A stretch of 64,000 nt of DNA from positions 64,001 through 128,000 of the IMG/VR virus record IMGVR_UViG_3300042197_003184, one strand, 5' to 3'. Origin of the DNA: a virus. The position numbers and the translations under genes were made by a program. The notes under the pieces are model-generated. The model ran no database searches, was not told where the DNA came from, and saw only the letters and a list, made by a program, of their open reading frames with translations. The stretch's first letter is position 1, and each line of letters opens with the position of its first letter. This document shows, one piece after another, positions 24,356-62,314 of the stretch.

Positions 24356-24383
24356 ATCATAAAACGCCGCGCACGGGTGTCAA
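24356..24383 (-). promoter_or_regulatory. Sigma70-type promoter for ssb
   Basis: TTGACA-N16-TATGAT on the minus strand, about 40 nt upstream of the ssb ATG. Confidence 0.6.
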
Positions 24384-26865: not shown

Positions 26866-26867
26866 AA

Positions 26868-42943: not shown

Positions 42944-44074
42944 CTATCTAATATATATCTCTACTCTCATGCTACGATTAAGTCCTTGAGTACCGGCGGT
43001 AGAATACCAGTCACCAGCGGAGTATGATGCTCCATTGACAGATAAGCCTATTCCACCACTAGCATCACAAGTATTAGCGTCATTTTCATTATTCCACACA
43101 AATCCCCACCTAGCATTAACAGAAGATCCAGAAGTATTCCCTATCATATTAAATCCATATCTTTTATATCCTGTTTGATGACTCCAGATAGCAGTATTCA
43201 TACCAGGAAAATTTAGAGCATTATTAGAAATTTCTCTGGTATTTTGAAATAGATTTAATAGGGTAGATGGAGTAGTTATATCTTCTTTCCATATCCATCC
43301 ATAAGACGGGGCGTATAGACTACCGCCTACCACTCCAACATCAGGCCAAACAGCCATAACCTGAGTACCTACATAAGTATTGAAAATATGGTACTTAGCA
43401 TCAGCGTCGTTTCTGGTGGTATCGCTTGGATTTAAAGTATTGTTGGTGGTCCAATAATTGCTGGAATAATTAAATGTTGTGTCTCTGGTAGCTTTCATAG
43501 CAAGCATCCAGCCACCGTTTTCCAAAGAAGGATCCATTAAGCAATAGGTGTTTTGTCCGTTGATTAGATAGGTTCCGTTATTGGCCGTGCCGCCCGATCT
43601 GTCTAGTATGGTTTTTGCGTTTGGCCAATTATATTCAGATGTCAACATTAAATCTCCACTTAAAATCCATTTATTAGTATCTATTTTAGAGATTGCTGCT
43701 ATGCCATAATTAATAATGTAATCACCTAGAGAGGAATTTATGGTTACTCCTGTATCCCCGACTATTCTTAAAGACGACAGACTATTATTGGAGATATCTA
43801 TAGATGCACCAATAGGAATATTTTCATTATCATTATTGGGTAAAATAATCTGAATATTGGATCCCTGAGTAGGATTAAAAACTATTAGGGATTTTCTGTC
43901 CGAATCTGTTAAGGTATAATCTACCGTACGATAGTATGCTTCTTTTCCAACTATAAAATCAGCAACGTTTTTAAGAGAAACCTTGTAGGTCTTATTGTTG
44001 TTCGTTGCTGGAAACACCATAGATTCGCCGATGTTAACAACGTCTGGTAATAAACTGAGCTTATTATTAATCAT
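42944..44074 (-). CDS. Fibre protein: N-terminal anchor-like domain plus fibrinogen-like C-terminal domain
   Basis: N-terminus paralogous to 62734-63639 (DY.L...D.KS..P.G...G..INS..W..SGDL); TYCLMD...GGWMLAMK fibrinogen-like motif. Confidence 0.7.
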   Translation of the reverse strand: MINNKLSLLPDVVNIGESMVFPATNNNKTYKVSLKNVADFIVGKEAYYRTVDYTLTDSDRKSLIVFNPTQGSNIQIILPNNDNENIPIGASIDISNNSLSSLRIVGDTGVTINSSLGDYIINYGIAAISKIDTNKWILSGDLMLTSEYNWPNAKTILDRSGGTANNGTYLINGQNTYCLMDPSLENGGWMLAMKATRDTTFNYSSNYWTTNNTLNPSDTTRNDADAKYHIFNTYVGTQVMAVWPDVGVVGGSLYAPSYGWIWKEDITTPSTLLNLFQNTREISNNALNFPGMNTAIWSHQTGYKRYGFNMIGNTSGSSVNARWGFVWNNENDANTCDASGGIGLSVNGASYSAGDWYSTAGTQGLNRSMRVEIYIR

Positions 44075-44358: not shown

Positions 44359-45213
44359 TTATCTAACGTAAATTTCTACTCTCATACTTCTATTGTATCT
44401 TTGCGTCCCAGCGGTATTGTATTTATCTCCAGCAGAATAATTCACTCCATAGCTCATACCAATTCCACCACTAGCATCACAACTATTAGCGTCATTTTCA
44501 CCATTCCACACAAATCCCCACCGAGCTGCTGCTGAACCAGCACCACTTACTCCATTATGTCCGCCAGAAGCCCCCTGAACATTAAAGCCATATTGTCTAT
44601 ATCCGTCTTGATAACTCCAAACATTACTATTAAAACCACCAAAATTAAATCCTGTGCCATAATATGTAGTGGTTTGAAATAGATTTAATAATGTAGATGC
44701 TGTTGGCATGGTTTGTTTCCATATCCATCCATATGCTGGTGCATTTATACTACCACCTGTCACATTTAAATCTGGCCATATAGCCATAACTTCAGTACCA
44801 ACAAAAGTATTAAATATATGATATTTAGCATCAGCATCATTTCTGGTAACATCTGTTGCATTTAGTATGTTATTAGTAGTCCAATAATTTGCACTATAAT
44901 TGAATGTTGTACCTCTCGTAGCTTTCATAGCCAACATCCATCCTCCTCCGTCTACCGCACTATCCATAATACAGTAAGTTGGGTTATTATTAATTATATA
45001 AGATCCATTGTCTGCTGATGGTATAATATTTTTAAGAGCAGAGGCACTATTCCAAGATGTTTCTGTTAAGTCCGTAAATCCTCCAGAATATGGAACTACA
45101 CCAGTAACTGCTGTGGAATAATTTCCTGTGCCTATTGGGTTTACGGCTGCCACTTGGAATGAGTAGGACAAATCGTTAGTTAGTCCTGTAAGTAGTTTAT
45201 TGAGTTTGGCCAT
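44359..45213 (-). CDS. Fibre protein: orphan FN3 C-half plus fibrinogen-like domain
   Basis: Starts LTGLTNDLSYSFQVAAVNPIGTGNYS; C-domain closely paralogous to 42944-44074; AGGAG RBS. Confidence 0.75.
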   Translation of the reverse strand: MAKLNKLLTGLTNDLSYSFQVAAVNPIGTGNYSTAVTGVVPYSGGFTDLTETSWNSASALKNIIPSADNGSYIINNNPTYCIMDSAVDGGGWMLAMKATRGTTFNYSANYWTTNNILNATDVTRNDADAKYHIFNTFVGTEVMAIWPDLNVTGGSINAPAYGWIWKQTMPTASTLLNLFQTTTYYGTGFNFGGFNSNVWSYQDGYRQYGFNVQGASGGHNGVSGAGSAAARWGFVWNGENDANSCDASGGIGMSYGVNYSAGDKYNTAGTQRYNRSMRVEIYVR

Positions 45214-47102: not shown

Positions 47103-50100
47103 TATACTATACCCCATTTAGATATTAGATACGCTTCAACAAGGTCGGCTTCGGCGTCGCTGATTTTGCTGTTATAGGCGACGATCTCGCAGATGTACCC
47201 GCTCCACGGATATTCATTGTTATAGGGGTATGCGCCGATCTGCGTCGGTTGGTTTGTTGTTGTAATGCCAGAAACGTTAGTATCTGCCGTGCCGTCAACA
47301 CCATTTAGGCCCACAAATCCGTTGTCGGCACCCAGCCTGAGCGCGGCTAGGAATGTCGTGTTTGCAGAAATACTGCCCTTCGTTGGCGCGCGAAGACTCG
47401 GGGTCCACCAATGCGTTTCAACATTAGACCCGTTGATGCGAAGAAACTGATGGGCGCGTGGGTTGACATTAGGGTTGTCCTTGTTCACCAGCAAACCAAT
47501 GCTTGACGTGGATGTTTTTTGTGCGACAACAAACAGCGACACATGCCCAGACCCGTTTTCAATATTGCCACTGAACTCCAGCCCGTCGTTACTGCCGTCA
47601 AAAAACAGCGCATCCTTAGCGCTGACGACGCCCGCCTTTCGCAGCGGCCGATTTGCACTCGTCCCCTGCGTCGCGTGCCGCCCGTTCCCCGACTTGTCCT
47701 CCCACCGCGCCACGCTGCCATCGGCTGCGACGAGACTGCCCCCACTAGTCGAATCATAGAGCGTAGAAGCATCACTACTATCTAGCCACAACTGCAATCC
47801 TGATATTGAGCTGGGACTAAATGTTGGGGGTGTTGGCGGCGTTTCAATATGAGAAGTCCAATTATTTCCTCCATCATTACTATATTGTACTAAGTATCCA
47901 GTTATTGCTGGTAACACTAGTTCATTAGACCAATTTAATTGGACACCACTAACAGAAGTTTGGTTAATAGTAAAGTTTGGTGGAGGTGGAGGAACTTCTT
48001 GATAATCTATCCAATTATTACCACCGTCAGTAGAGTATCTAACATTATAAGAAATTGGCAATGAACGACCATCATCCGCTGGACTGTCCCAAGTTAATAA
48101 TGCTCTACTATCACCAGCAGCTCCTGTCAAGTTGTTGATGATTGAAGGCACAGTAGCCTCAGAAATATTAGGAGTAGCAGAAATTATAGAGGTATAGCTA
48201 CTTGAACCAACACTATTTACAGCTTTCATTCTGAAATAATATGTTGTTCCATTGGTTAGTCCCGTAACATAAATACCACTATTTGAAAATGCTAAAGTAT
48301 CAGTAAAAGTAGTCCAATTAGTTTGATCAGTACTATATTCTATAGAATACGTTGTGCTAGATGGCAATCCACCGCTATTTCCTTTTGTCCAAGATAGTGC
48401 TACTAGCTGATCTCCTGGATCAGCAGCAAAATTAGTTACTGATGATGGGACTATAGCGGTAAAGTCTATGTAAAAATAATTATTGTAACCGTCTTGAACT
48501 ACAGAATACTCGGATTCTGTTGTGGAACTTGACCCGTTAGTAATACCACTATACGGCCATAAGTCTTTTAATACTGTTCTAAAATATACTCTTCCACTCA
48601 GATCTACCAATGGAGTTAAATGATTATCAGTATTTCCGTATGATATATATTTAAGATTTATGTCGTTTGCAGAGTTTGTGTATGTCCATAATCCTTCGGC
48701 AGGATTTAATGAATATTGGAATTTTAGAGCCGTATCATTGCCTGTATACCAACTATTGTCTGGCGTTGGACCATATCCATTAGCGTATACACCTATATTA
48801 AGTCTTTCATTAGCATTAGCATACAAACCAAAATAAGATTTATTATTTATAGTTTCATATTGTCCGGTATGTCTATTATAATCATGATAGAACTCATAAT
48901 TATAATAATTGTAACTTAGATTGACTAATCTAACAGCTGGTGTTACCACAGTTGTTGAGTATGCAGAAGTTACTACGCATCTTACAGGATCTTTTCCTGC
49001 TGGACTATTATAAGAATAGTTATTTGCAGCATTAAATGATTGAGTATTAATAGTTAAACTTGATGATGTGGCACCATCAATATTTTGCCAACTTCTTCCA
49101 TAGTCTCCATAATAGTTATTAATGTCTGTATCGTATTTTTGCCACTGATATGTTAATGCAGAATTGTCCGGGATTGTCGCGGTAACAGTGAAAGTTGTGC
49201 TTTCATTATAGCTTATTACTCTATCGTTTTTCGGTGCTGAAGTTATTGTTAGTACTGGAGGAGGAGCAACCAGAGTCGAAGAGCTTGTTAGATAATTGCT
49301 ATATCCTCCACTATTTTGTGCTCTAACTCTGAAGATATAATTTTTATTATTTGGCAAGTTAATTACTCTAGCATTAGCAAATTCCGTACTGAACACAGCC
49401 GTAAATGCTTCTGTGTACAATGCCTCTCCAACGGTATATCTTAATTCGTCTAGTCTTCCTAGTATATAGTTGTTTGGATTATGAGATGCTGATTCTCCTC
49501 CCATAATAACAAGACCTCCGGATGAGAAATTGTCATTATTAGTATCTGCTATTTCTAATATCTTTGCTCCTTCGAGGAAAATTCTCATTGTTCCATTATT
49601 GCGACAAAAGGCTAAGTGTATTGGTTTCTTATTGTATTGACCGACACCGTAATTATTTGTATTACCTCTTAATGAACCAGATACATTGACACTATAAACG
49701 GAAGACCCATTAACATATTTATGAATTCTAACAGTATTCCAGTCAATATTTTGTATACCAAAATATGATCCAGATGAACCGTTGTGGGAGCCAAATAGTC
49801 TACCTATACCACCAACAGCATATGGTTCATCAAACATGACAAACATTTCAAGAGTGTAATTCCCTGTCCCGGGATTTAGATCACTAGAACTGTCAACTTT
49901 AACAATATAAGGAGAAGAGTATCCTGATGTTCTATTGTATTGTATGTCTAAACATCCTGTTCCAAATTTTTGATATGTACCAGCAGATGATGCTCCTCCA
50001 ATGAATGCTGGATTGTTATTAGTATTCCAAAGAACATTTCTATTATAAAGAGAATAATCTTTAACTTTAGCATTACCTCTAATATCCCCCTTATTAAAGT

Positions 50101-51874
50101 GGAGCAATAGTCTGGTTGGAGATGACGAAACCGATGTCCATGATTGGGGATCTGTATCTTCTGTATATTGTAGATCATAAGATACTAATACTGATTTGTC
50201 GCTTGGAGGAGCAGAGAAGTCTATTTCTGCCGAAGCATCTCTACCATAAGCTGTTATACTAGGTGGAGCTTCTGGAGCAGTTATGGTTGGGGCTATATTT
50301 GAGAATGGTAGGGTTGGAGGTGTGAATATTGTGCCATCCGGATATCTGCATACTCCGCGAGTAATACGAATATCATCTAGATAACCTGCATAAAATGCAG
50401 TGTTATGGTATCTTCCAATATTTAAAGGACCAGTACCAGTAGCTATTCTACCACTAGAAGATCTTGTTGTTATTTGAGTACCATTCTGATAAGTTCTTAA
50501 AGTATTGCCTTGTCGAACAACAGCATAATGAACCCAATTATTTAAACTAATAGCGCCCATATCCATTTCGCTAGCAATATTCCAATTGTCATAGTTAGGA
50601 TCTTGACAAAAATAAGCCCGAACTCTGTTATTAGCTGCATAGCCTATTAAAAATGGGTTATATCCTTGATCGGTATTTGTGCGACACATTACTGATCTAC
50701 CACTAGTACTATCAGTTCTATATTCCCAATACTCTATTGTGAAATCTTCAGCACCAAAATCAAATCCAGGATGATCCGGAATCGTCACATAGTCTCCACT
50801 ACCATCAAAATACATACTTGATCCACCAAATTTATTTCGTGCAATACTGATTTTGGCATCGCCTTGAGCTGTGGAAGTTTTGGGTAAGTACGATGAGTCT
50901 ACAATGTTTGTACTATTATGACTTTCGTCAAAATGCAATAACAGCGAAGTGCTGTAGAAATATGGGTCTGGGTTGGTGTCAACTGCTGGTTCTGCTGGAA
51001 CTAGATTTGATTCGCTAACATATGAACCAATACCAGTATAATTAACAGCACCCACTCTAACGCTATATGTTGTGCCGTTTGTGAGTCCCGTAACACTAAT
51101 AGCAGGAACAACACTGGGAGAGTGAGCAAAATCCGTCCAGTTAGTGCCGTCTGTTGAATATTGGATACTATAATCAGTTATTATTCCACCATTATCCTCA
51201 GCGGGTGCTGTCCAAATCATATTAATTTTTTGTACCAATGGACCAGCGATAAGCTCTGTTGGAGCATTGGGCGGGGTGACAGGAGTTCCAGTAGAAGGAA
51301 ATGGAGCATGTAGTGTTTTGATATCAAAATTAGATGTATATTTGGCAGATCCTATGCCTTTGGTGATTCTGATTTCGTCCATAAAGCCACTAAAGGTTTC
51401 ACTACCATTAGTACGTCCCCCAATGAATAATGACTTGCTTGCTCCTAGATCACCACCATTACTAATAGACAATGATGCTGTACCATTAATAAAAACCTTA
51501 ACGGTGCTGCCGCTTCTAACAAGAGCCAAATGACTCCAAGAGTTTAAAGGAACATTGCCAGGATTCCAATTATATTGAGAGTTATTAATATATAGATTAT
51601 CACCACCAGTACCCATTCTCCATAGTATACCGCTTGTATAAGATCCTATTTCAAATAATGTTCTCCAATTATTATTATCATAAGCGTAAACCCATAATTC
51701 TACTGTAAAATCACCGGTTCCGAAACCAAAATCAGTATTATCAGCAACTGAAGCATAAGCCCCATTATTCAAGTATAAAGAAGCTCCACCAAATCGACTT
51801 CTTAGGGAGCTGATAGCTGCTCCATTATTTAGTGTGACGGTTTTAGGTTTTGGTGACGAATCTATTATACTCAT
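47102..51874 (-). CDS. 1590-aa fibre/adhesin protein with LamG, FN3 and Ig domains
   Basis: Repeated DFT.E.W, W.H.A..R and DEIRITKG LamG motifs; FN3 W/Y patterns; C-terminal LQLWLD..W.DKSGNG domain. Confidence 0.85.
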   Translation of the reverse strand: MSIIDSSPKPKTVTLNNGAAISSLRSRFGGASLYLNNGAYASVADNTDFGFGTGDFTVELWVYAYDNNNWRTLFEIGSYTSGILWRMGTGGDNLYINNSQYNWNPGNVPLNSWSHLALVRSGSTVKVFINGTASLSISNGGDLGASKSLFIGGRTNGSETFSGFMDEIRITKGIGSAKYTSNFDIKTLHAPFPSTGTPVTPPNAPTELIAGPLVQKINMIWTAPAEDNGGIITDYSIQYSTDGTNWTDFAHSPSVVPAISVTGLTNGTTYSVRVGAVNYTGIGSYVSESNLVPAEPAVDTNPDPYFYSTSLLLHFDESHNSTNIVDSSYLPKTSTAQGDAKISIARNKFGGSSMYFDGSGDYVTIPDHPGFDFGAEDFTIEYWEYRTDSTSGRSVMCRTNTDQGYNPFLIGYAANNRVRAYFCQDPNYDNWNIASEMDMGAISLNNWVHYAVVRQGNTLRTYQNGTQITTRSSSGRIATGTGPLNIGRYHNTAFYAGYLDDIRITRGVCRYPDGTIFTPPTLPFSNIAPTITAPEAPPSITAYGRDASAEIDFSAPPSDKSVLVSYDLQYTEDTDPQSWTSVSSSPTRLLLHFNKGDIRGNAKVKDYSLYNRNVLWNTNNNPAFIGGASSAGTYQKFGTGCLDIQYNRTSGYSSPYIVKVDSSSDLNPGTGNYTLEMFVMFDEPYAVGGIGRLFGSHNGSSGSYFGIQNIDWNTVRIHKYVNGSSVYSVNVSGSLRGNTNNYGVGQYNKKPIHLAFCRNNGTMRIFLEGAKILEIADTNNDNFSSGGLVIMGGESASHNPNNYILGRLDELRYTVGEALYTEAFTAVFSTEFANARVINLPNNKNYIFRVRAQNSGGYSNYLTSSSTLVAPPPVLTITSAPKNDRVISYNESTTFTVTATIPDNSALTYQWQKYDTDINNYYGDYGRSWQNIDGATSSSLTINTQSFNAANNYSYNSPAGKDPVRCVVTSAYSTTVVTPAVRLVNLSYNYYNYEFYHDYNRHTGQYETINNKSYFGLYANANERLNIGVYANGYGPTPDNSWYTGNDTALKFQYSLNPAEGLWTYTNSANDINLKYISYGNTDNHLTPLVDLSGRVYFRTVLKDLWPYSGITNGSSSTTESEYSVVQDGYNNYFYIDFTAIVPSSVTNFAADPGDQLVALSWTKGNSGGLPSSTTYSIEYSTDQTNWTTFTDTLAFSNSGIYVTGLTNGTTYYFRMKAVNSVGSSSYTSIISATPNISEATVPSIINNLTGAAGDSRALLTWDSPADDGRSLPISYNVRYSTDGGNNWIDYQEVPPPPPNFTINQTSVSGVQLNWSNELVLPAITGYLVQYSNDGGNNWTSHIETPPTPPTFSPSSISGLQLWLDSSDASTLYDSTSGGSLVAADGSVARWEDKSGNGRHATQGTSANRPLRKAGVVSAKDALFFDGSNDGLEFSGNIENGSGHVSLFVVAQKTSTSSIGLLVNKDNPNVNPRAHQFLRINGSNVETHWWTPSLRAPTKGSISANTTFLAALRLGADNGFVGLNGVDGTADTNVSGITTTNQPTQIGAYPYNNEYPWSGYICEIVAYNSKISDAEADLVEAYLISKWGIV

Positions 51875-51889
51875 TTTATTATGGCCCTA

Positions 51890-54800
51890 TTAATTTGAAT
51901 CTAAATGTAATAGTAATCTTGTTTTGTTATATGTGTTGTCTTCTCTAAGAACCGTTAGTGTCGGAGAAACCGTTGAAACATAACTTCCTGTACCAGCTAT
52001 ATTAATCGCTGCTACCCTGAAAGAGTAGCTAGTACCAACAGTTAATCCGTCAACCACAATAGATGTACTTATACTAGGACTATGAATATAGTCTGTCCAT
52101 GTGCTTCCATTATCTGATGAATATTGTACGGAATAGTCTTTGATAGCCGAATTATTAGCTGTTGGAGCTGTCCAACTTAAATAAGCTCTATCGCTGTCTG
52201 GTATAACATTAAGGTTTGTTGGTGCTCCTAAAGTACTGATAGCGCTAGTGGTTGAAGAACTATAATTACTAGCTCCTATAGCATTAACTGATCGTGCTCT
52301 AAAAGTATATGGAGTACCAATTGTGGATAGTCCGGTTATTCTATTAGCAGGGGCCTGTGGTAGTGATCTTGGGTCAAAATTACTTGTATATCTTGCTACC
52401 CCTTTAGTGATTCGTATATCGTTCATGTGTCCATAAAAATATTCATTTCCAGCAGGCCAGCCACCAACATACACCTTACGATTAGTATTATAGACAGTAT
52501 CTGCAACAAAATTTAATACCGAAATACCATTAAGATACAGAGTTATGATTCTGCCACTACGCACAACAGCAACATGATTCCAAACATTAGCATACGGTAC
52601 GGCACTGCTTTCTTGTTGACCGCCAGTTACGGCGGTATAAAAAGATAGCACACCAGTACTCTGTCTCAAATATAGCTGCCAGTCTCCGTCCGTGCCTTCG
52701 CTTCCACCATTACCTCGTTTACTTATGACGGTATTGTATTTACTCCAATCTCCTGTTGGCCTTATCCAACCCTCTATAGTCCAGTCTTGATTACGCAAAT
52801 CAAAAGCCGAGTTATTTTCTATTACTAAATTATCATTAGATCCATCAAATACTACGCTACCATTACTAAACCACCCTTGAGATGTAGTAATTTTTGTATC
52901 TCCAACAATACTAACATTATGATTGTGTTTTGAATCATCAATAATATCAAAAGAGTTATTGGTTCCCGTCATTGGTAACAATAATGATACCTTGTCATAA
53001 TAAGGATCAGAAACTACTGACAAGTTATTCCATGTTGATCCGTCTTCCGAATACTGAAAATTATAAGCCGTTATAGGAGAACGACCATCGTTTGTTGGTG
53101 GAGTCAAGGACACTTTAAAGATATTGTCTCTTTCGGTAACAGCTAATCCGCTAGGAGATGATGGTGCTGTTGGGGCAGGACCAAGGTTTGGTGCGGGGGC
53201 TGCTGGTTTTGTAAAGCTTGAGGTGTATCTTGATATTCCTTTGGTTATTCTAAGGTCGTCAATATATCCTTTATAATTATCTGTTATAGAGTTACTAGAT
53301 GATCGACTAGCTCCTACTGTTAGACCGTTGGAGTTGATTCTGTTTATGTTATCTGTAAATGGTCCTTGGTTTGGAAATGAACTGCTGGGTGGAGTAAAAT
53401 TAGAAGTATAGCGAGCTATACCTTTAGTGATACGAATCTCATCAATAAAGCCACCACCCCACGACGGATAACCAGAACTTCGTCGTCCTGCAACATCTCC
53501 AATCCACAAAGCCTGACCATTCAAATTAGCATTGCCAATATCAGCTGGGGTTCCGGCCACGCCATTAACCCATATGGTTGCGATACTACCGCTTCTGGTC
53601 ATAGCAATATGAGTCCATTGACCAACAGCCAAGCCAGTAGAATGAGAAGCGTAACTTGCTGTGACAGCGAAATATGTGGACATACCATTCGTACCTCCTG
53701 CCAAAACCCAAGGACTGCCCACTGCCGAAGAACGAAAATCCATAATGTTTCTAGAATCGAACCCAACATCAAGATAAATCCATGCCTCTATCGTAAAATC
53801 GCTCGTTCCTAGTTGTAGATCCGAGTCGCTGGCAACAGAGATAGCTCCGTCTGTACCAAGGCTTAGACTAGTTGCTCCAAACTTGCTTTGTGCTGTCGAA
53901 AGTTTAGCAGTTCCATGGACAGAGATGGCTCTTGTGTCAAGACTGGAGTCTGTTAAAGAAATAGCTTCATCGACCCCATCCATATGCAACAATAACGACA
54001 CATTACTATAGTATGGGTCTACTGCGGATGTTCCTAGTTCGTTGCCGTCTAAGAATAGCTTCAAACTATCGCTAGAACGACTGGCGGCTAAATGATACCA
54101 TGTTCCAGAAGCTAATGGAGGAGATACTTCTTTTTCTACTATTGTAGTATTGCCATTTCGGAATTGTACGATAGAAGAATTTACTGTGCAGCCCAGTATC
54201 TCTTTACGTGTGTACGAGAAAGCTCCTCCACCACCACTTTGCCAGCTCGTAAACTTAATTGCCCAATATCTATTGGTGGGTACATGCTTCATTATGAGTT
54301 CTTTACCAACCATCTCTGGAGTAGAATAACAGCTTCTTACAATGCCATAGTCTCTCCAATTACCATATGTTCGTGTGGTGTAATTACAAATATTGGTCCA
54401 GTTATTAGCATCTTCAACGCAACAATTATAATTATCTGATTGATATTGTCTACATCTATTCCAAACAGTATTAGCAGGAGAAGAACTCTGACTATAACCA
54501 CCTTCTATAGCACTATTATATATACCTTGCCCATCTCCTCGTGTAATTTCCAAAACGCCAGGAATAATCACATCCACTTCATTACCATAGTTTGTTGCAG
54601 TAAAGGAGACCTCTGGTCCGTAATTGACCGTGCCACCAGTAGACGGCGAGCCTACTGCTAATCTCCAACCCCCATCAGCTCCATCATAATTACCAACAAT
54701 AGCTTTGGTGCCATTCATATCATCTGGATTGATCCAAGCTTCTACGGTAAAGTCATCTGTACCTAATTGCCAAGCCTTATCTCCTGGAACGCTCAGATAA

Positions 54801-55447
54801 GAATTGCCGTCGAAATATGCGCTAGTTCCACCAAATTTACTTTGTGCCGAACTAATAACAACAGGACCTTTGTTTCCTACTGGTTTATCAAAACGTGAGC
54901 CGTCATCAAACGAAGAAATTGTTGCAGGATCGAGGGGGTTGGGTACAAAATTAGCAGTGTATCTTGCAACACCCTTACTAATGCGCAATCCGTCTATCCA
55001 CCCATCAATAGGATAAGATCCTGTATCTCCGTTACCTATGGCTAAATTTCTAGAACTGTCATTAACTAATGAGGAGCTGTTGTTCCATGATGATGTAAGA
55101 GATCCGTTTACAAATGTTCGAAAAGTTGAACCTGATCTTGTAACAGCAACGTGGTACCATGTATTCAGAGTTATGCTAGGCGCAACAGTTTGATTATTAG
55201 CAATGTCCCAGCTTGATCCGTTGCTAGAAGCATAAAATGCTATTCTAGAATCTCCTGTGGCATATATTAAAAAAGCACCAGTATGAGAAGGCCAGCCTTT
55301 GGTTACTATACCTCTGTCATTAAGCCAGCTATTAAACTTTACCCAACACTCTATAGTAAAATCCCCTGAGCCAAAGTTAAAGTCTTCGCTATGAGGAACT
55401 CTTAAAGATGAACTATTAGATACTCTAAGACTACTAGGTAATGGCAT
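51890..55447 (-). CDS. 1185-aa fibre/adhesin protein with four LamG and two FN3 domains
   Basis: LamG and FN3 motifs, several nested inside each other. Confidence 0.85.
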   Translation of the reverse strand: MPLPSSLRVSNSSSLRVPHSEDFNFGSGDFTIECWVKFNSWLNDRGIVTKGWPSHTGAFLIYATGDSRIAFYASSNGSSWDIANNQTVAPSITLNTWYHVAVTRSGSTFRTFVNGSLTSSWNNSSSLVNDSSRNLAIGNGDTGSYPIDGWIDGLRISKGVARYTANFVPNPLDPATISSFDDGSRFDKPVGNKGPVVISSAQSKFGGTSAYFDGNSYLSVPGDKAWQLGTDDFTVEAWINPDDMNGTKAIVGNYDGADGGWRLAVGSPSTGGTVNYGPEVSFTATNYGNEVDVIIPGVLEITRGDGQGIYNSAIEGGYSQSSSPANTVWNRCRQYQSDNYNCCVEDANNWTNICNYTTRTYGNWRDYGIVRSCYSTPEMVGKELIMKHVPTNRYWAIKFTSWQSGGGGAFSYTRKEILGCTVNSSIVQFRNGNTTIVEKEVSPPLASGTWYHLAASRSSDSLKLFLDGNELGTSAVDPYYSNVSLLLHMDGVDEAISLTDSSLDTRAISVHGTAKLSTAQSKFGATSLSLGTDGAISVASDSDLQLGTSDFTIEAWIYLDVGFDSRNIMDFRSSAVGSPWVLAGGTNGMSTYFAVTASYASHSTGLAVGQWTHIAMTRSGSIATIWVNGVAGTPADIGNANLNGQALWIGDVAGRRSSGYPSWGGGFIDEIRITKGIARYTSNFTPPSSSFPNQGPFTDNINRINSNGLTVGASRSSSNSITDNYKGYIDDLRITKGISRYTSSFTKPAAPAPNLGPAPTAPSSPSGLAVTERDNIFKVSLTPPTNDGRSPITAYNFQYSEDGSTWNNLSVVSDPYYDKVSLLLPMTGTNNSFDIIDDSKHNHNVSIVGDTKITTSQGWFSNGSVVFDGSNDNLVIENNSAFDLRNQDWTIEGWIRPTGDWSKYNTVISKRGNGGSEGTDGDWQLYLRQSTGVLSFYTAVTGGQQESSAVPYANVWNHVAVVRSGRIITLYLNGISVLNFVADTVYNTNRKVYVGGWPAGNEYFYGHMNDIRITKGVARYTSNFDPRSLPQAPANRITGLSTIGTPYTFRARSVNAIGASNYSSSTTSAISTLGAPTNLNVIPDSDRAYLSWTAPTANNSAIKDYSVQYSSDNGSTWTDYIHSPSISTSIVVDGLTVGTSYSFRVAAINIAGTGSYVSTVSPTLTVLREDNTYNKTRLLLHLDSN

Positions 55448-55459
55448 TATAATCTTTCC

Positions 55460-55822
55460 TTATGTTGTTAGTTCTACCCAATTTTGAGACTCTTCATCCC
55501 ACTTGTAAACCTTGCCGTCTGTTGGGTGGTCTACTGGGGCTTTCCATCGACAACTGTTAGTATCCAAAGTCCATGAAGCAAAAGGCTGGGGAGCAACAAA
55601 AGCATCCAAACCCTCATTATAACTATACCCTATACCAGCATAATTTTTCCTAATTTTGCCGTTGTACGATGTTTGTTTCCATCTATTATGACCAAATAAA
55701 GAGGCTAAGAAATTTACTCCTTTGCTCTCACTTTCTTCTCCATTATCAATTAATTCATTATTGTTAACAACAATCACTTGAGTTACAATATTATTGTCAT
55801 CTAATTCAGCAAAATGGGCCAT
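55460..55822 (-). CDS. Small fibre-associated protein (possible assembly chaperone)
   Basis: MAHFAELD..IVTQVIVV..WKQTSYN..RKNYAGIGY..F..PQPF.SW..Y.WDE pattern, commonly found next to Gly-rich fibre genes. Confidence 0.7.
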   Translation of the reverse strand: MAHFAELDDNNIVTQVIVVNNNELIDNGEESESKGVNFLASLFGHNRWKQTSYNGKIRKNYAGIGYSYNEGLDAFVAPQPFASWTLDTNSCRWKAPVDHPTDGKVYKWDEESQNWVELTT

Positions 55823-55835
55823 TTTATTCTCCTTC

Positions 55836-58800
55836 TTAGAATGTTATAGAACCTGTTCCTGTGAAAATATAAAGTTTACCACCGTCACTGTTAGAATCAG
55901 GGAATTGGGAATCCGGTACGCTTATAGAGGATCCTGTATAATTCCTGCCACTGCCGATAGTAAATCTTACATCATCTATATAGTAGTTGGGTGATGACCA
56001 GCCATAACCAGTAAAATCAAAATTTGCTCCTATAAACCCATACGGTAAACTAGCTAGATTATAGTTGTTGTTATCTGTGGTACTATCCACTAGTATTCCG
56101 TCCACATAGGTTCTAGTAGTACCAGATGTGCGAGCAATAGCAATATAAACCCATTGAGATAAAGGCAGGGTAGCGATCCATTGTCTACCATTAGATGGTA
56201 AATTTAAAGATAGTCTTCTGCTCTGATCTATTTCTACATTAAATCCTGTGACACCCGGATATCGAAAATCGAAAAGAGCACTATTATCAGATTGAGACCC
56301 AGCAATAAATACCCAGCTTTCCAGTGTGAAATCTTGAGTTCCTATGTTAGACATAGAGCCTATTCTTAAATAAGATCCATTACCTAATAATGCTGCGCTT
56401 TTACCTCCCCATTTAGATTGAGTCGATGACTGTGTAGCAGAACCGAATGCCGTAATAGTCTTTGGATTTGGTGAGACATCTGTAAATACTGATGCATTGT
56501 CGTTCATATGTAATAATATTGATACATCTTTAAAATAAAGATCACTAGCTGGACTAATAATAGGGGATCCGGTTGTTGATGTTGCTGCTACAGAAGATTT
56601 GATTACTACTACGCCAGAGGCACCTGAGCCAGCAGCGTTGTTGCCGGAACCTCCAGCGCCTCCACCTCCGCCGGTATTTGCGACGGCTGCTGTTCCGGTA
56701 CTTCCGGCTCCTCCTGTGCCGCCACCCCCACTACCGCCAGAACCAGCCGTTGCGCTGCCGGTATTGGTACCTCCACCACCACCACCTGCGTATGTTGTTC
56801 CGTACCACGACCTACCATTGCCTCCAGAACCACCTACAGAGCTGGTTCCATTGCTGCCAGCCGTCTCTGCCCCGCCACCGCCACCTCCTCCATATGCTGG
56901 GGAATTATAGTTTGACGATCCCCCGTTATTTCCGTATCCTATAAATGGTCCGGAACTGGTTTGTGTAGCGGTGCCGCCAACAGATCCTTCGTTATTTGAT
57001 CCTCCGCCAGAACCTCCGTTTTTGCCGTTGGCATTAGGAGAACATCCGCCACCACCACCACCATTCGCCGTATGACCAGCAAACGTAGAATCAGATCCGG
57101 TATTGCCAGCATTGCTGGATACTGCTGTTCCACCAGCACCAACAGAAACAATGTAGGTTTCTCCCACAGTAAGAGATAAAGCAGTAGCTTCTAACAAACC
57201 TCCAGCGCCGCCGCCACCGCCTCCACCATTACCAGAACCGCCAGCGCCGCCTCCTGCCACAACTAAGGCTTCAACAGAAACGTCTGGAATTGGTAGAGTT
57301 ACTGACTTAGCTTTCCAACCTCCTTGGCCATTACTATTAATGGCCGCCACTCTAAAATAGTAGTTTCCATCAGCTAGTCCAGAAATTGTAACACTATTGG
57401 TGCTAGATGTTCCGTCGTTTACGGTAGTCCAATTAGATTCGTTTTCTGTACGGTATTGAATCACATAATCAGTAGCTCCGTCTATAGAGTCCCATGATAG
57501 GGTCGCCTCTCCTGGAGTGCTAGAGCTGGCAGTTATATTGGTTGGAGGAGTAGGGGGAGATGCTGATGGAAAAGTTATGGATCCAGTACCAGTAAACATA
57601 TAAATATTGTATAAACCATCAGCTGATACTGTTGGGCTTCCTGTTGTTGAAGTTGCGGTGGCTTTTGTTCTTAGAATAACAGCACCAGAACCTCCAGTTC
57701 CTCCATAGTTATTAGAATTGTAATGAGAGCCTCCACCACCACCTCCTCCAGTATTAGCTCCACCATTTCCACCAGGAGTATTAGTTTGAGAATTTGTACT
57801 ACCTCCACCTCCAGATGCTCCATTATTTATGCCAGCTCCACCAACCGTTGTACCAACAGCCCCGCCACCTCCACCACCAATACCTCCGTCTCCTCCGGTA
57901 GTAGTATAACCAGAACCACCGCCGCCACCTGCCCAGTAATAAAGAGTTCCTAATATTCTGCTAAGTACTCCAGGACCGCCGTGGCCTCTTACGCTACCAT
58001 TTCCAATACCAGCACCTCCGGCTCCACCACCGCCACCAGGATACCAGTGTGGTCCGCTGCCAGCACCATCATATCCTTGTTTGGCAGTACCGCTTCCAGG
58101 CAAGCCACCATAACTACTACCGTTTTGACGACCACCTGATCCACCACCACCACAACCTCCACTATTTGCATTCCATCCGTTACCGTTATGTTGACTAGCC
58201 CCGTAACCTCCGCCTAGTGCTGTAACCAGAGCGTTGCCTATTACGGAAATAATACTGTTACCTCCATTGGTGCCTGACCCACCACTACCAGCAGGTGCTC
58301 CAGACCCACCAGCACCCACAACCACATTCAGAGTACTAACATTTGCTAAATACATAGGAGATTCTGCTGTTGATCCTCCGCCAGAAGTTGCTCCCTCAAC
58401 GTTGGTGATCAAACCACCGGCACCACCGCCACCACCCATATCGTTACCTCCGCCTCCTCCACCAGCGACCACTAGATATTCAACAGAAATTCCTGTTAAT
58501 GGCAGAGCTAGATCTATAGAAGTCCAAGAACTTTGTAGATCTCCATTGGTACCAGCTATTCTAAAAGTATATGTTCCATTGGGTAAATTATTGATAGTGG
58601 TACTATTATTAGATGATACTCCGTCATTAACGGTTGTCCAAACTATTCCTCCGTCTGTGCTGTACTGAATAATATAGTCTGATGCTCCTGGAGGTAGTGT
58701 GGGTGCTGTCCAAGACAGCGTTAACGACCCACTTTGTGGTTGAGATGGTACAATATTAGTTGGTGCAGGTAGCGGGCCTGAGTACGTTGATGTTGAGGGG

Positions 58801-59765
58801 CCGTTAATGGCATAAATAGTTTTGGGGTTAGGAGACAAATCTCTAAAAGGATTAGAAGGATTAGGATATGCCGAAGTGGGTAATGTAATATTACGAGCAA
58901 CACCGTTGGTGAATCTGAATTCATCTATCTGACCATCAAAACCACCAACACTAGCCACCCTACCAACACTAAATCCATTCTGATTAAAATTAGTAGAAGA
59001 GAAAATAGTACTATTACTTACTGTTTGTTCTACTCCATCAATAAATATTTTTATAGTACCGCTTTGTCTAAGTATGGCTAAGTGATACCACGTATTTGTT
59101 GAAGCAGACCACGGGGAGGTGCAATAATTACTCGTGGCGTGTTGTCCAACCATCAGATTACCAGAACTATACTGAATATACCATTTGCCACCATCTGCAC
59201 CATTAGGGTCTGATGTTGGATTACAAATAGGGTTTGCACTATTGATAGATCTAAACTTAACAAATAACTCAACAGTAAAATCTCCTGTCCCAACACTAAA
59301 ATCATTAGACGAATCAAAAGTTAGATAATTAGACCCATTAAAAGATAAAGAGCCTGTGCCAAATCTACTGTCGGATATTGTTTGAACTGGTACGGCCCCG
59401 TTAGTATAAACATTTTTGTTACCAAGAGAAGAGTCTGTTAAAGCTATACCATCGCCATGTAATAACAATTTTGTTTCTAAAGAATAGGGATCATCATTAG
59501 GACCGTATTGAGTTGTTCCCAGGATAAAAGCATCATTGCCATAATATGAGTCTCCATTAATTACCTCATCCATATTTAGCAATAATTCTACATTATGATA
59601 ATTGTCGTCTATAGCAAATAAAGACGGCGTTGCTAATACATAGTCTGTAAATGGGCCAACGCCTATAGAATTTACTGCTGCTACTCTAACTCGATAAGTA
59701 ACATCGTTAGTTAAGCCGGTAATAGTGTAACTTCTATTAGCACTATTGGTATTAATAGTTGGCAT
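55836..59765 (-). CDS. 1309-aa fibre/adhesin protein with FN3, LamG and two Gly-rich domains
   Basis: FN3 C-half start, LamG motifs, two VE.LVVAGGG.GG...FTGTGSITF domains. Confidence 0.85.
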   Translation of the reverse strand: MPTINTNSANRSYTITGLTNDVTYRVRVAAVNSIGVGPFTDYVLATPSLFAIDDNYHNVELLLNMDEVINGDSYYGNDAFILGTTQYGPNDDPYSLETKLLLHGDGIALTDSSLGNKNVYTNGAVPVQTISDSRFGTGSLSFNGSNYLTFDSSNDFSVGTGDFTVELFVKFRSINSANPICNPTSDPNGADGGKWYIQYSSGNLMVGQHATSNYCTSPWSASTNTWYHLAILRQSGTIKIFIDGVEQTVSNSTIFSSTNFNQNGFSVGRVASVGGFDGQIDEFRFTNGVARNITLPTSAYPNPSNPFRDLSPNPKTIYAINGPSTSTYSGPLPAPTNIVPSQPQSGSLTLSWTAPTLPPGASDYIIQYSTDGGIVWTTVNDGVSSNNSTTINNLPNGTYTFRIAGTNGDLQSSWTSIDLALPLTGISVEYLVVAGGGGGGNDMGGGGGAGGLITNVEGATSGGGSTAESPMYLANVSTLNVVVGAGGSGAPAGSGGSGTNGGNSIISVIGNALVTALGGGYGASQHNGNGWNANSGGCGGGGSGGRQNGSSYGGLPGSGTAKQGYDGAGSGPHWYPGGGGGAGGAGIGNGSVRGHGGPGVLSRILGTLYYWAGGGGGSGYTTTGGDGGIGGGGGGAVGTTVGGAGINNGASGGGGSTNSQTNTPGGNGGANTGGGGGGGSHYNSNNYGGTGGSGAVILRTKATATSTTGSPTVSADGLYNIYMFTGTGSITFPSASPPTPPTNITASSSTPGEATLSWDSIDGATDYVIQYRTENESNWTTVNDGTSSTNSVTISGLADGNYYFRVAAINSNGQGGWKAKSVTLPIPDVSVEALVVAGGGAGGSGNGGGGGGGAGGLLEATALSLTVGETYIVSVGAGGTAVSSNAGNTGSDSTFAGHTANGGGGGGCSPNANGKNGGSGGGSNNEGSVGGTATQTSSGPFIGYGNNGGSSNYNSPAYGGGGGGGAETAGSNGTSSVGGSGGNGRSWYGTTYAGGGGGGTNTGSATAGSGGSGGGGTGGAGSTGTAAVANTGGGGGAGGSGNNAAGSGASGVVVIKSSVAATSTTGSPIISPASDLYFKDVSILLHMNDNASVFTDVSPNPKTITAFGSATQSSTQSKWGGKSAALLGNGSYLRIGSMSNIGTQDFTLESWVFIAGSQSDNSALFDFRYPGVTGFNVEIDQSRRLSLNLPSNGRQWIATLPLSQWVYIAIARTSGTTRTYVDGILVDSTTDNNNYNLASLPYGFIGANFDFTGYGWSSPNYYIDDVRFTIGSGRNYTGSSISVPDSQFPDSNSDGGKLYIFTGTGSITF

Positions 59766-59820: not shown

Positions 59821-60678
59821 TTATGATATTAACTGCGGAGTTTGTGGAATTCTAGTAGTAATTTGACCATAATCAATATAGCTTTTTTCTGCTAATCCAC
59901 TAGATCGGTGTCCTAGGTGAAATTTAGCCATACCCGGCTGGTTTATTTCTATATGGGTAGCTCCGCTACGTCTTAAGAATTTACTGGAGCCTTTTATATT
60001 GCAGAATTTAAGAAAATCATACATAATAATTTGAGCCCTTCTTTTACCACACAACCATCCTAATATTCTATTGTCGTCAGAAGATTTGTATGATAATAAT
60101 TCATTAATACTATCTACGCAAGCGGAGCTTAAGACCTTAGTCATAGGATCGCCAGTTTTGCTCATGGTCCAGCGTAATATGTTGTTATCAATATGGTCTA
60201 TTGTAAAAGTTAATAAGTCTCCAAAACGAGCACCACTTTCATAACCTAATAATAACCATGCTCTAATAAAACATCCTAATGGAACTCCTTTTTTACTAAT
60301 TTTATCAAATTCATAACTTTTATCTATCAACATTTTACACTCATCAATCGTCCAAGCTTTTGTTGGGGCTTTTCTAGCTTTAATAGACACAATATTTTTG
60401 GGAGCAAATTTTACCAAATTATTTTCATAAGCATAATTCCATAAGGTTAACAAAATGGTACGCTCTGATTTAACAGTAATAGAACTAGCTTTAGTTAGAC
60501 GATCTTTTAAATAGTTATTAACAACATCTTTTAAGATATATTTACATCTTTTAGCAATTCTATAAACATTGCTCTCATATTCTTTAGACACTATATGATT
60601 ATTCATATAATGCTTAACAATACTAACAAAAGTTACATTCTTAGTTTTAGTCTTGGTCTTGGTCCTGGTCTTAGTCAT
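59821..60678 (-). CDS. Tyrosine recombinase/integrase
   Basis: ESGARFGDL (R), SKTG (K), KFLRRSGAT (box II, usual His replaced by Lys), LGH, SYID (Y); AAGGAGG RBS. Confidence 0.88.
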   Translation of the reverse strand: MTKTRTKTKTKTKNVTFVSIVKHYMNNHIVSKEYESNVYRIAKRCKYILKDVVNNYLKDRLTKASSITVKSERTILLTLWNYAYENNLVKFAPKNIVSIKARKAPTKAWTIDECKMLIDKSYEFDKISKKGVPLGCFIRAWLLLGYESGARFGDLLTFTIDHIDNNILRWTMSKTGDPMTKVLSSACVDSINELLSYKSSDDNRILGWLCGKRRAQIIMYDFLKFCNIKGSSKFLRRSGATHIEINQPGMAKFHLGHRSSGLAEKSYIDYGQITTRIPQTPQLIS

Positions 60679-60699
60679 ATTAATATCCTCCTTAGAGGT

Positions 60700-60748
60700 A
60701 TTATAAGACTTTGTAACGAATAGTCAGCAACGCTTTTATTATTCGTTA
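60700..60748 (-). promoter_or_regulatory. Sigma70-like promoter of the recombinase overlapped by a 9-bp inverted repeat
   Basis: TATAAT at 60705-60700 with CTGACT 16 nt upstream; TAACGAATA (60714-60722) N17 TATTCGTTA (60740-60748). Confidence 0.55.
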
Positions 60749-60766
60749 TCTTTGTCGTATAGCGCA

Positions 60767-61777
60767 CTAGGCGCCAGGGAACGCTTCCGTGGGCGGCGTG
60801 AACGTCGTGCCGTTGGGATAGCGACACGCGGCAGTGAGTCGCACATCGTCAAAGCTATGGGTCTGCCACAGAACCAGATTGGACATCGCAATATTTGTGA
60901 ACTCACCAGAGTGTATCTGCTGACCGTTGTAATACCACCTGCCGGTGCTGCCCTGTCGCACGAACGCAAAGTGATACCACTGTCCGTTCGTTGCGGCGGA
61001 GGTGGACACGTATCCGCCATCAAAGTTTTCCACTTGGAAACCACTGGTCGTTACTTGTAACTCAAGAAACAGCCCGGAGCCTATATTGCCCAGCAAAACC
61101 GCCCTGTTGCCGACGCCGCCGTTGAATTTTTTGACCCAGAACTCCAACGTGAAATCTGTGGACGCCGGAGCCGTGACTCCGTAGGTAAGTTGAGTGTTTG
61201 AAGAGAGAGTTGCCGCATTTCCAAATTTACCTGCGGCATACGAGATATTGCTGTAACCCAGATTGGTATATGACGGCAGGCGACTGTCTGGCCCAATGTC
61301 GTTCGGAGTATTGTCAAATGGAACGAGCAGCAGAACGTCTCCCCACAGAGGGTCGCCGGGCGAAACGGTCAGCGTGGCGCTGCTGCTCGTCACGCTCTCG
61401 GCACCACCCGTTGCGCTGACCACCACTCGGTACACATCGCCGTCGTCATCGGCGTGCGTCAGGCCGGACAGCGCGAGAGTGCTACTTGTCGCGCCGCCCA
61501 CGTTAGTGAACGAACCAGAACCGCTTTCTTGCTTCTGCCACTGGTAAGACAGGGTGGCATTTTGCGTGACCGTCGCCGAAACGCTAAACGCGGCACTGCC
61601 GCTAGAGGCTGTTTGATTGCCGGGCTGGCTGGTGATGGTGATAGCCGGTGCCACTGGCCACGCTGCCGCCCGTTTCTGCCGCTCGGCCGTCCGCAAGTCC
61701 CAGATGCCGCTGGCGACACTCGTCGTCGGCCCATCCGGTCGCGGCCCGATGTACGAACCGTTCGCTCGCAGACTCAT
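60767..61777 (-). CDS. High-GC fibre-type protein with Ig-like and LamG domains
   Basis: SGIWDL N-terminus, LSYQWQK Ig, DFTLEFW..WYHFAFVR..DDVRLT..RYPNGTTFTPP. Confidence 0.8.
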   Translation of the reverse strand: MSLRANGSYIGPRPDGPTTSVASGIWDLRTAERQKRAAAWPVAPAITITSQPGNQTASSGSAAFSVSATVTQNATLSYQWQKQESGSGSFTNVGGATSSTLALSGLTHADDDGDVYRVVVSATGGAESVTSSSATLTVSPGDPLWGDVLLLVPFDNTPNDIGPDSRLPSYTNLGYSNISYAAGKFGNAATLSSNTQLTYGVTAPASTDFTLEFWVKKFNGGVGNRAVLLGNIGSGLFLELQVTTSGFQVENFDGGYVSTSAATNGQWYHFAFVRQGSTGRWYYNGQQIHSGEFTNIAMSNLVLWQTHSFDDVRLTAACRYPNGTTFTPPTEAFPGA

Positions 61778-62235
61778 TCCGCACCTCCCGCGCTCAACGC
61801 CGCCCGAGCCGCACCATACGCGAGCATCAGCGGCTCAAACTCCGCGAACGTCATGGTGTGCCGCTCGCCCGCCATGTCGGTGACGATGACCGGCTGCGAC
61901 ACGCCCAACTCGGCCGCCCGAGCCGCCAGCACATAGAGGCCGGTGAGCAACGCCACGTCGTCAGGCTGCCACGCGAGCCGCCAGCCGCCTGGCGTCTCCC
62001 AGCCTGCCTCAAACGGCGACGGCTCCGGTGGTGGAGGCGGTGGGGGAAACAGGGCGTCTAGGTCGTCCTGCGTCAGCGTGGACGCGGCCCAGCCGGTCGC
62101 CTCCAGCACTGCGGCATCCAGCGACCACTGCGCCGGGTCGGTGCGGGTGCTGCCATCAGGCATCCGCACCCGGAAGGGCAAGGCCAGGGCGGCTACGCCG
62201 TTACGTCGCCAGCAGGGATCGCCGAGAGCAGGCAT
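61774..62235 (-). CDS. High-GC small fibre-associated protein (DUF4376-like C-terminus)
   Basis: 153-aa ORF with ATGA overlap to the next gene; LMLAYGAAR end. Confidence 0.6.
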   Translation of the reverse strand: MPALGDPCWRRNGVAALALPFRVRMPDGSTRTDPAQWSLDAAVLEATGWAASTLTQDDLDALFPPPPPPPEPSPFEAGWETPGGWRLAWQPDDVALLTGLYVLAARAAELGVSQPVIVTDMAGERHTMTFAEFEPLMLAYGAARAALSAGGAE

Positions 62236-62302
62236 GGAAGTTCTCTATTGTTGTGAGGTAATGTACTATCAAACTTATACGGTGATAGTGTCCGTTAATT
62301 TT

Positions 62303-62310
62303 TATACACC
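62303..62310 (-). promoter_or_regulatory. GGTGTATA intergenic motif
   Basis: 4 nt after the 62315 stop, upstream of 62235. Confidence 0.5.
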
Positions 62311-62314
62311 AGAA

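Follow-up and report, generated by a model that had tools for sequence, protein, structure and literature searches.

Whole domains nested inside other domains, and divided between genes at the same loops, in a putative tail-fiber locus of an uncultured 140-kb phage

We analyzed a stretch of 64,000 nucleotides (hereafter, the window) that spans bases 64001-128000 of the 139,964-bp IMG/VR virus record IMGVR_UViG_3300042197_003184 (CheckV completeness, 94%) and that carries, beyond its replication genes, an array of large genes on the minus strand (Table 1). Our data show that many LamG domains sit in the proteins of this array as complete guests within loops of host domains, rather than in series with them. 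The host sites are the C'-E loop of an FN3 domain (twice), the b1-b2, middle, and late loops of one LamG, and a position ahead of the last two strands of a glycine-rich domain. Among related phages, these guests have been gained, lost, or exchanged at exact domain boundaries, with the innermost guest being the most variable part. The same loops also hold blocks that bring a stop and a new start codon, so that consecutive genes share the parts of several FN3 and LamG domains. The architecture recurs on independent contigs (related loci L002-L005) and is therefore not an assembly artifact. Taken as a whole, the locus is probably best explained as a modular, multi-lectin tail-fiber or adhesin locus, with a fiber that is probably branched, of an uncultured 140-kb tailed phage. 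It is made of four module types: FN3 spacers, LamG domains of the concanavalin-like lectin type, a Cys/Trp-rich domain, and glycine-rich tips of the Pam3 gp24 and S16 gp38 type.

The nested domains were located with two hidden Markov models (HMMs) of our own, a LamG model of 212 positions and an FN3 model of 91 positions, which were built from the window's uninterrupted copies and run against all array proteins. In both P0002 and P0001, an FN3 domain is interrupted by a complete LamG; the N-terminal halves (N-halves) end and the C-terminal halves (C-halves) resume at matching model positions (49/56 in P0002 and 53/55 in P0001). A sequence-only reading made before this analysis had placed these two guests at 53011-52349 and 50116-49379. 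The HMMs recovered them there, and indeed all five inserts claimed on the minus strand were found within a few codons of the expected limits, in an architecture that is nested more deeply than had been supposed. In an AlphaFold2 (AF2) model of P0002, computed from a 45-sequence alignment with a mean predicted local distance difference test score (pLDDT) of 79.2, both halves of the split FN3 form strands (pLDDT 71-84). The guest LamG (residues 813-1031 of the model) is a complete jelly roll that a VIA fold search aligned to domain 4 of AbnA (5ho2; Z 21.9, root-mean-square deviation 2.5, 194 residues aligned). The nested FN3 halves were kept in every P0001 ortholog examined.

One LamG of P0002 harbors both a Cys/Trp-rich domain and another full LamG, as the sequence-only reading had proposed. 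This host is represented by three collinear pieces, and its own first strand is absent (the match starts at model position 21), as it is in the counterpart in every relative. An in silico splice of the three pieces matches full LamGs over 183-201 residues with 25-37% identity, and in the AF2 model the pieces form strands with pLDDT values of 65-90. The Cys/Trp-rich guest gave no Pfam match and no Atlas match; AF2 models it as beta-rich with two short helices (pLDDT 62-92). It contains in turn an 18-residue Cys-rich mini-insert (54370-54425, P0002 residues ~336-353) that is present here and in the orthologs P0010 and P0012 and absent from P0006, P0011, P0013, P0026, and P0028, which represents a further level of presence and absence. 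In P0003, a full LamG (residues 92-294) is flanked by a LamG strand (b1b) and a b2-like segment (residues 296-325, 58791-58880). Collectively, the nesting reaches a depth of three: LamG-a contains LamG-b, which contains LamG-c, and LamG-a carries the Cys/Trp-rich unit and the inner LamG as well.

The glycine-rich domains supply the remaining host. The large array proteins match Laminin_G_3, fn3, and Gly_rich_2 above the Pfam thresholds, with two Gly_rich_2 (PF21722) matches of 95.8 and 70.2 bits (cut-off, 24.3). In the second glycine-rich domain of P0003, a guest LamG, previously assigned to 56546-55890, stands after the TTGSP motif and ahead of the domain's last two strands, with the displaced tail DGGKLYIFTGTGSITF behind it. 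TTGSP and the tail are contiguous in the window's two other glycine-rich domains, and the tail matches the uninterrupted tails at P0003 residues 705-732 and at the end of P0005; in the window and its orthologs, there are three uninterrupted copies. A second AF2 model, covering P0003 residues 826-1309, gave pLDDT values of 84-98 over most of the glycine-rich core (54-69 at construct residues ~101-120) and placed the tail behind the 220-residue insert as two strands with pLDDT 96-97. VIA searches matched the core to the fiber of cyanophage Pam3 (7ypx_A; Z 13.2, 164 residues aligned, 28% identity) and to the tail tip of Bxb1 (9d93_Qa; Z 12.9), and a phmmer search of the domain against Protein Data Bank (PDB) sequences yielded no match.

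The sequence-only reading had pointed to alignment with related genomes as a way to find empty-site alleles. We collected P0002 orthologs by a search of 5.8 billion proteins and compared them by BLAST blocks and a MAFFT alignment. Empty sites were found in orthologs for all four insert types, namely the inner LamG, the Cys/Trp-rich unit, and the LamGs in FN3 and in the glycine-rich tail. P0002, P0006, P0007, and P0012 have the inner LamG; in P0010, P0011, P0013, P0015, P0026, and P0028, the MAFFT alignment shows it to be precisely absent, with the host LamG continuous, and BLAST blocks reveal the same gap in P0008 and P0014. The Cys/Trp-rich unit is precisely absent from P0015, and P0017 and P0019 have an ordinary LamG segment in its place (P0020 displays the same BLAST block pattern as these two). 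P0026 and P0028 lack the LamG in FN3 and have an uninterrupted FN3, and the P0003 orthologs of L002 and L084 have an uninterrupted glycine-rich tail with no guest. Sites that are empty here are filled in relatives: a LamG occupies the B-C loop of the next FN3 (model position 27/28) in L082 (9980-13276) and L083, and in L084 (6865-8520) another lies in the first glycine-rich domain, within its core. The P0001 ortholog of L084 has, in addition, an extra insert inside the nested LamG.

Among P0002, P0006, and P0012, the inner LamG is far more divergent than its flanks. On a tree built from 263 shared columns, the Cys/Trp-rich unit is ancestral with at least two losses, the pattern of the inner LamG can be explained by a single gain followed by losses or else by recombination, and the state of the FN3 guest flips many times. 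This guest turnover fits diversification of host-surface glycan binding. The sequence-only reading held that the array grows by repeated in-frame insertion into tolerant loops. The presence/absence alleles and the small set of loops used speak for this, and the direction, the junction signature, and the recency of the events do not. In terms of direction, the tree requires both gains and losses, or recombination, so that growth appears to be partly supported. The LamG units in the window share 23-39% identity with one another; the insertion events are therefore old, and recent intragenomic duplication is ruled out as the source of the guests.

The junctions themselves carry no target-site duplication and no microhomology longer than 3 nt, so the shared core or microhomology that had been envisaged there did not materialize; no direct repeat of at least 7 nt occurs at both edges of any insert, and all that the two edges of the inner LamG share is a GGA codon. 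The DPY/DLY start and Pro-rich end noted earlier at the inserts are indeed present. However, they are the termini of a LamG subfamily, and tandem, non-nested LamGs carry both; therefore, they mark domain boundaries and are not an insertion signal. We favor rare illegitimate in-frame insertion combined with precise loss or exchange, under selection for loops that tolerate guests. The two ends of a LamG are known to lie side by side, and a LamG could therefore enter a loop as a guest and leave its host unbroken.

The C'-E loop of FN3 (model positions ~50-55) is not only an in-frame insertion site but also the site at which FN3 domains are cut between genes, a coincidence that the sequence-only reading had recognized. 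The orphan FN3 halves of the window balance at three to three: N-halves lie in protein A and, as a tandem pair (N2 and N3), in P0001, and C-halves open P0003, P0005, and protein F. Across the nine genomes covered by the count, the HMM identified 15 orphan N-halves and 16 C-halves, and a sixteenth N-half, in L034, was recognized by eye only. Each orphan C-half is the very start of a gene downstream of an N-half, a pattern seen in eight relatives. Incomplete domains in one chain are accordingly matched in number by the absent strands in another. The N-half of protein A has orthologous N-halves in the A-like genes of L001, L002, and L084; the single N-half found in L001 and L002 is the ortholog of N2; and the C-half of protein F is orthologous to the C-halves that open the genes after the P0001 orthologs in these two loci. 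N3 and the C-half of P0005 occur in this phage only; they stand, in bracket order, inside the conserved pair formed by N2 and protein F, the arrangement that would result from insertion of a cassette carrying a split FN3 of its own into an existing split site. At the P0001/P0005 boundary, the TAATG overlap places the two genes in different frames.

A LamG is likewise divided between P0002 and P0001. P0002 ends with an orphan LamG first strand (NKTRLLLHLDSN), and P0001 opens with a LamG that is without exactly this strand. The same truncation occurs in the P0001 orthologs of L034 and L081-L085, and those of L001 and L002 open with the same MSIIDSSP... sequence; in L001 and L002, the junction is also conserved at the DNA level. 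Among 45 orthologs, the last 12 residues of P0002 are its most conserved 12-mer (first of 1174 windows; majority fraction 0.94, compared with a mean of 0.65). The orphan strand (residues 1169-1185) has a pLDDT below 50 in the AF2 model and is therefore not docked in cis. Recoding or read-through at this junction was considered and is ruled out by two different in-frame stops, TAA and TAG (three TAA in L001).

The division between P0003 and P0002 is the one for which an unsplit allele was found. P0003 has two orphan LamG first strands, b1a and b1b, which would open two LamGs that P0002 completes. P0007 encodes the first 325 residues of P0003 together with P0002 in one open reading frame (ORF), in which the P0003 strand order is contiguous and the LamG is intact (P0003 residues 17-325 share 66% identity with P0007 residues 17-323, and P0002 residues 5-200 share 52% with P0007 residues 334-532). 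In the window, LamG-b is interrupted by a block of ~4 kb consisting of the remainder of P0003, a stop, P0004, and a new start. An orphan b1 upstream of a LamG that lacks b1 is also found in L034, L081, L082, and L084. The proposal that inserts carrying stop and start signals produced the split genes is thus supported for this pair by P0007. It gains nothing from the P0002/P0001 LamG split or the FN3 splits, which are split in every relative examined. P0004 (phrog_7759) lies inside the splitting block; its ortholog is at the same place in L002 and L084, and the loci with an unsplit ORF (L001 and L085) lack the gene. We speculate that P0004 might be a fiber assembly factor. This gene also has the region's only DNA similarity to a cultured phage, Pelagibacter phage Greip (65%).

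We postulate that whole guest domains in loops would make the fiber a stalk that bears lectin branches on its sides, not a thread, and that the divided halves may re-associate in trans, with docking in the order A, P0003, P0002, P0001. P0005 and protein F would then both attach to P0001, yielding a branched fiber. To judge from the sequences, trans docking in this order stands at about even odds, and it would be the simplest reading of the facts about the orphan halves. A more general formulation, which we regard as possible at slightly under an even chance, is a "bracket grammar", whereby one gene opens an FN3 or LamG domain and a later gene closes it, with correct nesting throughout, and every split domain acts as a specific non-covalent joint. 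The joints would pair FN3 strands A-C' with strands E-G and LamG b1, with or without b2, with the remaining body; a cassette bringing its own split domain would add a branch and leave the old joints undisturbed. Nested in-frame guests and split genes would then both arise by a single process, insertion into a common set of tolerant loops.

Several points weigh against this combined reading of nested hosts and docked halves. Strand b1b and the b2-like segment were recognized by eye and from the P0007 alignment, with no significant HMM match. The predicted template modeling score (pTM) of the P0002 model is 0.39, and the pairing of host halves in three dimensions, as it may be drawn from pLDDT, DSSP, and homology, is a matter of prediction; VIA searches with the whole P0002 model returned the best guest LamG only, and those with the P0003 model returned the glycine-rich core. 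The guest LamG in the P0003 model is poorly predicted (pLDDT 27-64), which we attribute to a shallow alignment. The glycine-rich tail may be a semi-independent hairpin, because some members of the family end ahead of it: most of the best 150 of 11,595 family representatives reach its last residue, a subset ends at about position 242, and the structural alignments to 7ypx_A end at model residue 238. Glycan binding and the fiber location are suggested by analogy with relatives. Finally, the N-truncated LamG of P0002 reaches high AF2 confidence without the missing strands, so the truncation might be tolerated without a partner.

These points have to be set against the alternatives. If the domains were simply beads on a string, the "halves" would be degenerate linkers or chance partial matches, with LamGs lying between separate small segments. 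It is true that the half-FN3 matches to our HMM are individually weak (independent E-values of 1e-3 to 1e-5) and that in P0002 Pfam fn3 lists one full FN3 stretch only. Nevertheless, the positions of the model where the N-halves stop are those where the C-halves resume, at exactly this site P0026 and P0028 have a single FN3 without interruption, the three LamG pieces are collinear and together make up a full-length LamG, and both FN3 halves are stranded in the model; this reading is largely refuted, and we find it scarcely credible. A dedicated recombination system, such as a shufflon or a cassette integrase, could instead shuffle the guests as cassettes, with the boundaries as recombination sites. 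The array does contain an integrase-family gene (59821-60678; phrog_1, E 3.6e-16; weak PF00589 match), and the insert boundaries are reproducible. Yet the island with this gene is absent from L001, L002, L084, and L082, the four relatives whose loci cover the stretch from the A-like gene to the next fiber gene, and their architecture is the same. No repeats flank the inserts, the boundary motifs belong to tandem LamGs too, and units that are 23-39% identical were not recently copied. The combination of a recombinase with flanking recombination sites that defines shufflons and invertase systems was not found, and such a system is very improbable here. A history of loss only, starting from a maximally nested ancestor and leaving empty sites as precise deletions in a shrinking array, is somewhat easier to entertain, albeit still improbable. 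In its favor, the Cys/Trp-rich insert occurs in all deep branches and is absent in derived ones only, and the inner LamG requires at least two losses on the tree. On the other hand, neither P0021 nor any member of the lower clade has the inner LamG, in keeping with a gain at the base of one clade; guests occur in L082, L083, and L084 at sites that this phage and the other relatives examined have empty; N3 and P0005 are found in this phage only; and every nested state must have started by insertion.

A further alternative accepts the nesting and takes the split domains as relics of decay or rearrangement, with the orphan halves as unfolded tails and any joining of the proteins achieved via other surfaces. 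The confident modeling of the truncated LamG speaks for it, as does a tree that needs both gains and losses, or recombination. Against it, every relative examined retains the splits, even L034, the most distant (28% identity match), and the orphan halves balance in number and order. The orphan strand of P0002 is also its most conserved 12-mer, the C-half of P0003 is 85% identical to its L002 ortholog compared with 61% for the next 370 residues, and an extra N-half co-occurs with an extra C-half. We therefore consider the relic reading unlikely, and these sequence comparisons argue that the orphan halves may be functional.

Table 1. Genes, nested domains, and orphan domain parts of the array (window coordinates)
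Feature	Position	Strand	Details
Protein A	62734-63639	-	301 residues
Orphan FN3 N-half (strands A-C') near protein A C-terminus	62908-63036	-	Model 2-43; then Pro/Thr linker, stop
Four-gene island	59821-62680		Between protein A and P0003
P0003	55836-59765	-	1309 residues
Orphan FN3 C-half (strands E-G) opening P0003	59646-59753	-	Model 51-86
Two orphan LamG first strands of P0003	59508-59606	-	b1a, residues 54-70 (model 2-18, weak); b1b, residues ~72-86 (by eye)
Full nested LamG of P0003	58884-59492	-	Residues 92-294; LamG HMM 1-209, 240 bits; Pfam PF13385
Second glycine-rich domain core (TNF-like plus polyglycine lattice)	56556-57290	-	P0003 residues 826-1070; PF21722, 95.8 bits
Guest LamG in glycine-rich domain	55932-56543	-	P0003 residues 1075-1278; LamG HMM 1-210, 229 bits
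Displaced glycine-rich tail DGGKLYIFTGTGSITF	55839-55889	-	Final 16 residues of P0003
P0004	55460-55822	-	120 residues
P0002	51890-55447	-	1185 residues
N-truncated LamG opening P0002	54938-55423	-	Residues 9-170, model 54-211; AF2 pLDDT 73-93
Host LamG of P0002	53204-54913	-	Residues 179-260, 427-471, 702-748; model 21-104, 116-159, 166-211
Cys/Trp-rich guest domain	54176-54661	-	P0002 residues ~263-424, ~160 residues, inside host LamG
Inner guest LamG of host LamG	53384-54019	-	P0002 residues 477-688; LamG HMM 1-212, 286 bits
Split FN3 of P0002	52253-53164	-	Residues 762-809 (model 2-49) and 1032-1065 (model 56-88 of 91)
Guest LamG in P0002 FN3	52364-53008	-	Residues 814-1028, model 1-212 of 212; C'-E loop
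Orphan LamG first strand ending P0002 (NKTRLLLHLDSN)	51893-51952	-	Then TAA TAG, four codons, ATG of P0001
P0001	47102-51874	-	1590 residues
N-truncated LamG opening P0001	51323-51871	-	Residues 2-184, model 21-209
Split FN3 of P0001	49283-50275	-	Residues 534-586 (model 2-53) and 832-864 (model 55-88); C'-E loop
Guest LamG in P0001 FN3	49400-50116	-	Residues 587-825
Tandem orphan FN3 N-halves of P0001	47831-48148	-	N2, residues 1243-1293; N3, residues 1295-1348; then divergent LamG-like domain, stop
P0005	45222-47117	-	631 residues; probable start at 47102 (TAATG stop/start overlap)
Orphan FN3 C-half opening P0005	46998-47096	-	Own HMM
Protein F	44359-45213	-	284 residues
Orphan FN3 C-half opening protein F	45112-45192	-	Model 61-87; Pfam fn3 positions 53-83, E 0.017

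The replication genes that flank the array encode a ribonucleotide reductase, a UvsX-like recombinase, a DnaB-like helicase, a primase, and a DNA polymerase. The latter is of the family-B type and is encoded in two genes (26868-28736 and 24380-26005) with an ORF of 231 residues between them (25998-26693; whole region, 24380-28736). In the array, PF13385 (Laminin_G_3) scores 220 bits in P0002, 149 in P0001, 101 in P0003, and 75 in P0005, against a gathering cut-off of 27.6, and the uninterrupted fn3 (PF00041) units score 65-88 bits in Pfam and are covered by our own HMM over positions 1-90. Protein A matches minor-tail and tail-fiber PHROGs; between 62734 and 63200, its FN3 N-half lies between long linkers rich in Pro and Thr (PTPT repeats), and the local GC skew is strong. 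Protein F and the next large protein (42944-44074) have a common C-terminal domain of ~225 residues (phrog_1325) that contains a DGGGWMLAMKATRGTTFNY stretch reminiscent of fibrinogen-related lectin domains and gave no Pfam match. As for the four-gene island, the integrase-family (tyrosine-recombinase-like) gene has ~30% GC, and two other genes, one of which encodes an Ig plus LamG protein, lie in a stretch of 60-71% GC (60750-62250), compared with ~37% for the genome. The island is either a recent foreign acquisition or else an assembly chimera.

Searches of phage GenBank revealed no ortholog of the array proteins in cultured phages; all matches to P0002 were below 35% identity, and none spanned 80% of the protein. 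An IMG/VR scan with alignment found two close loci only, L004 and L005. Most of the 77 IMG/VR loci are unrelated LamG phages, and among them split FN3s occur only in L034. A motif-pattern count of LamG "opening" and "closing" motifs across relatives was too insensitive for use. Literature searches retrieved no relevant match on LamG domain insertion in phages or on fiber assembly by split domains or strand complementation.

Many polymorphic sites, three nesting levels, and gene breaks in the same loops provide an unusually clear picture of the way modular adhesins can grow sideways rather than lengthwise. Docking of the halves in trans, if real, would give phages a novel means of building and re-wiring branched fibers for receptor binding, and natural split FN3 and split LamG pairs could serve as connectors that require no protein ligation. 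Domain callers under-annotate discontinuous domains here, and fragments at the starts and ends of fiber genes should be considered functional candidates, not necessarily errors.

Nested domains as such are a known architecture; what is new here is the degree of nesting, its polymorphism, and its coincidence with conserved gene splits. Domain insertion, with a discontinuous host and a contiguous guest, was reportedly surveyed by Aroul-Selvam, Hubbard and Sasidharan in 2004. As in catalogued cases, the guest is contiguous and complete, with adjacent termini, and the host is split in a surface loop. Unlike them, one host LamG here has three guests, nesting goes to a depth of three, the same guest family occupies at least six host sites that are polymorphic among close relatives, and gene breaks fall in these loops too.

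The glycine-rich domains of P0003 and P0005, both members of PF21722, have their closest known counterparts in the tail-fiber tips Pam3 gp24 and S16 gp38 and in the TNF-like/glycine-rich domain of ALK (PDB 7ypx and 7lir), the fold match to ALK being weak (Z 5.3-5.4). The distal receptor-binding tip of Pam3 gp24 is built of TNF-like strands together with a glycine lattice (PMC9608196). The Pam3 fiber is a 250-residue chain with one tip, whereas here three tips lie in chains of 631-1309 residues; moreover, a LamG interrupts one tip ahead of its last hairpin, and the core of another tip is interrupted in L084. The LamG guests share their jelly roll with AbnA domain 4 (5ho2) and with the lectin-like Hc-N subdomain of clostridial neurotoxins and NTNH (Z 18-22 over ~190-200 residues). 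The likeness is in fold only, at 12-18% identity and with no toxin domains, and sugar binding by these LamGs is suggested by the fold family. The multi-LamG proteins of S-SKS1, PhiJL001 (gp88), and S-PM2 are similarly large, LamG-rich, and annotated as tail or structural proteins, but all matches are below 35% identity, and the orthologous nested and split layout occurs in no cultured phage of the collection.

In chaperone-usher pili, donor-strand complementation completes an incomplete beta-sandwich with strands of the next subunit and thereby determines the sequence in which subunits assemble. The docking proposed here would likewise have an incomplete sandwich completed by another subunit, although the comparison is no more than a working analogy. 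In contrast to the pili, the donation would amount to up to half a domain (three FN3 strands) or to one to two LamG strands, and the partners would be the products of adjacent phage genes; the analysis identified no chaperone or usher.

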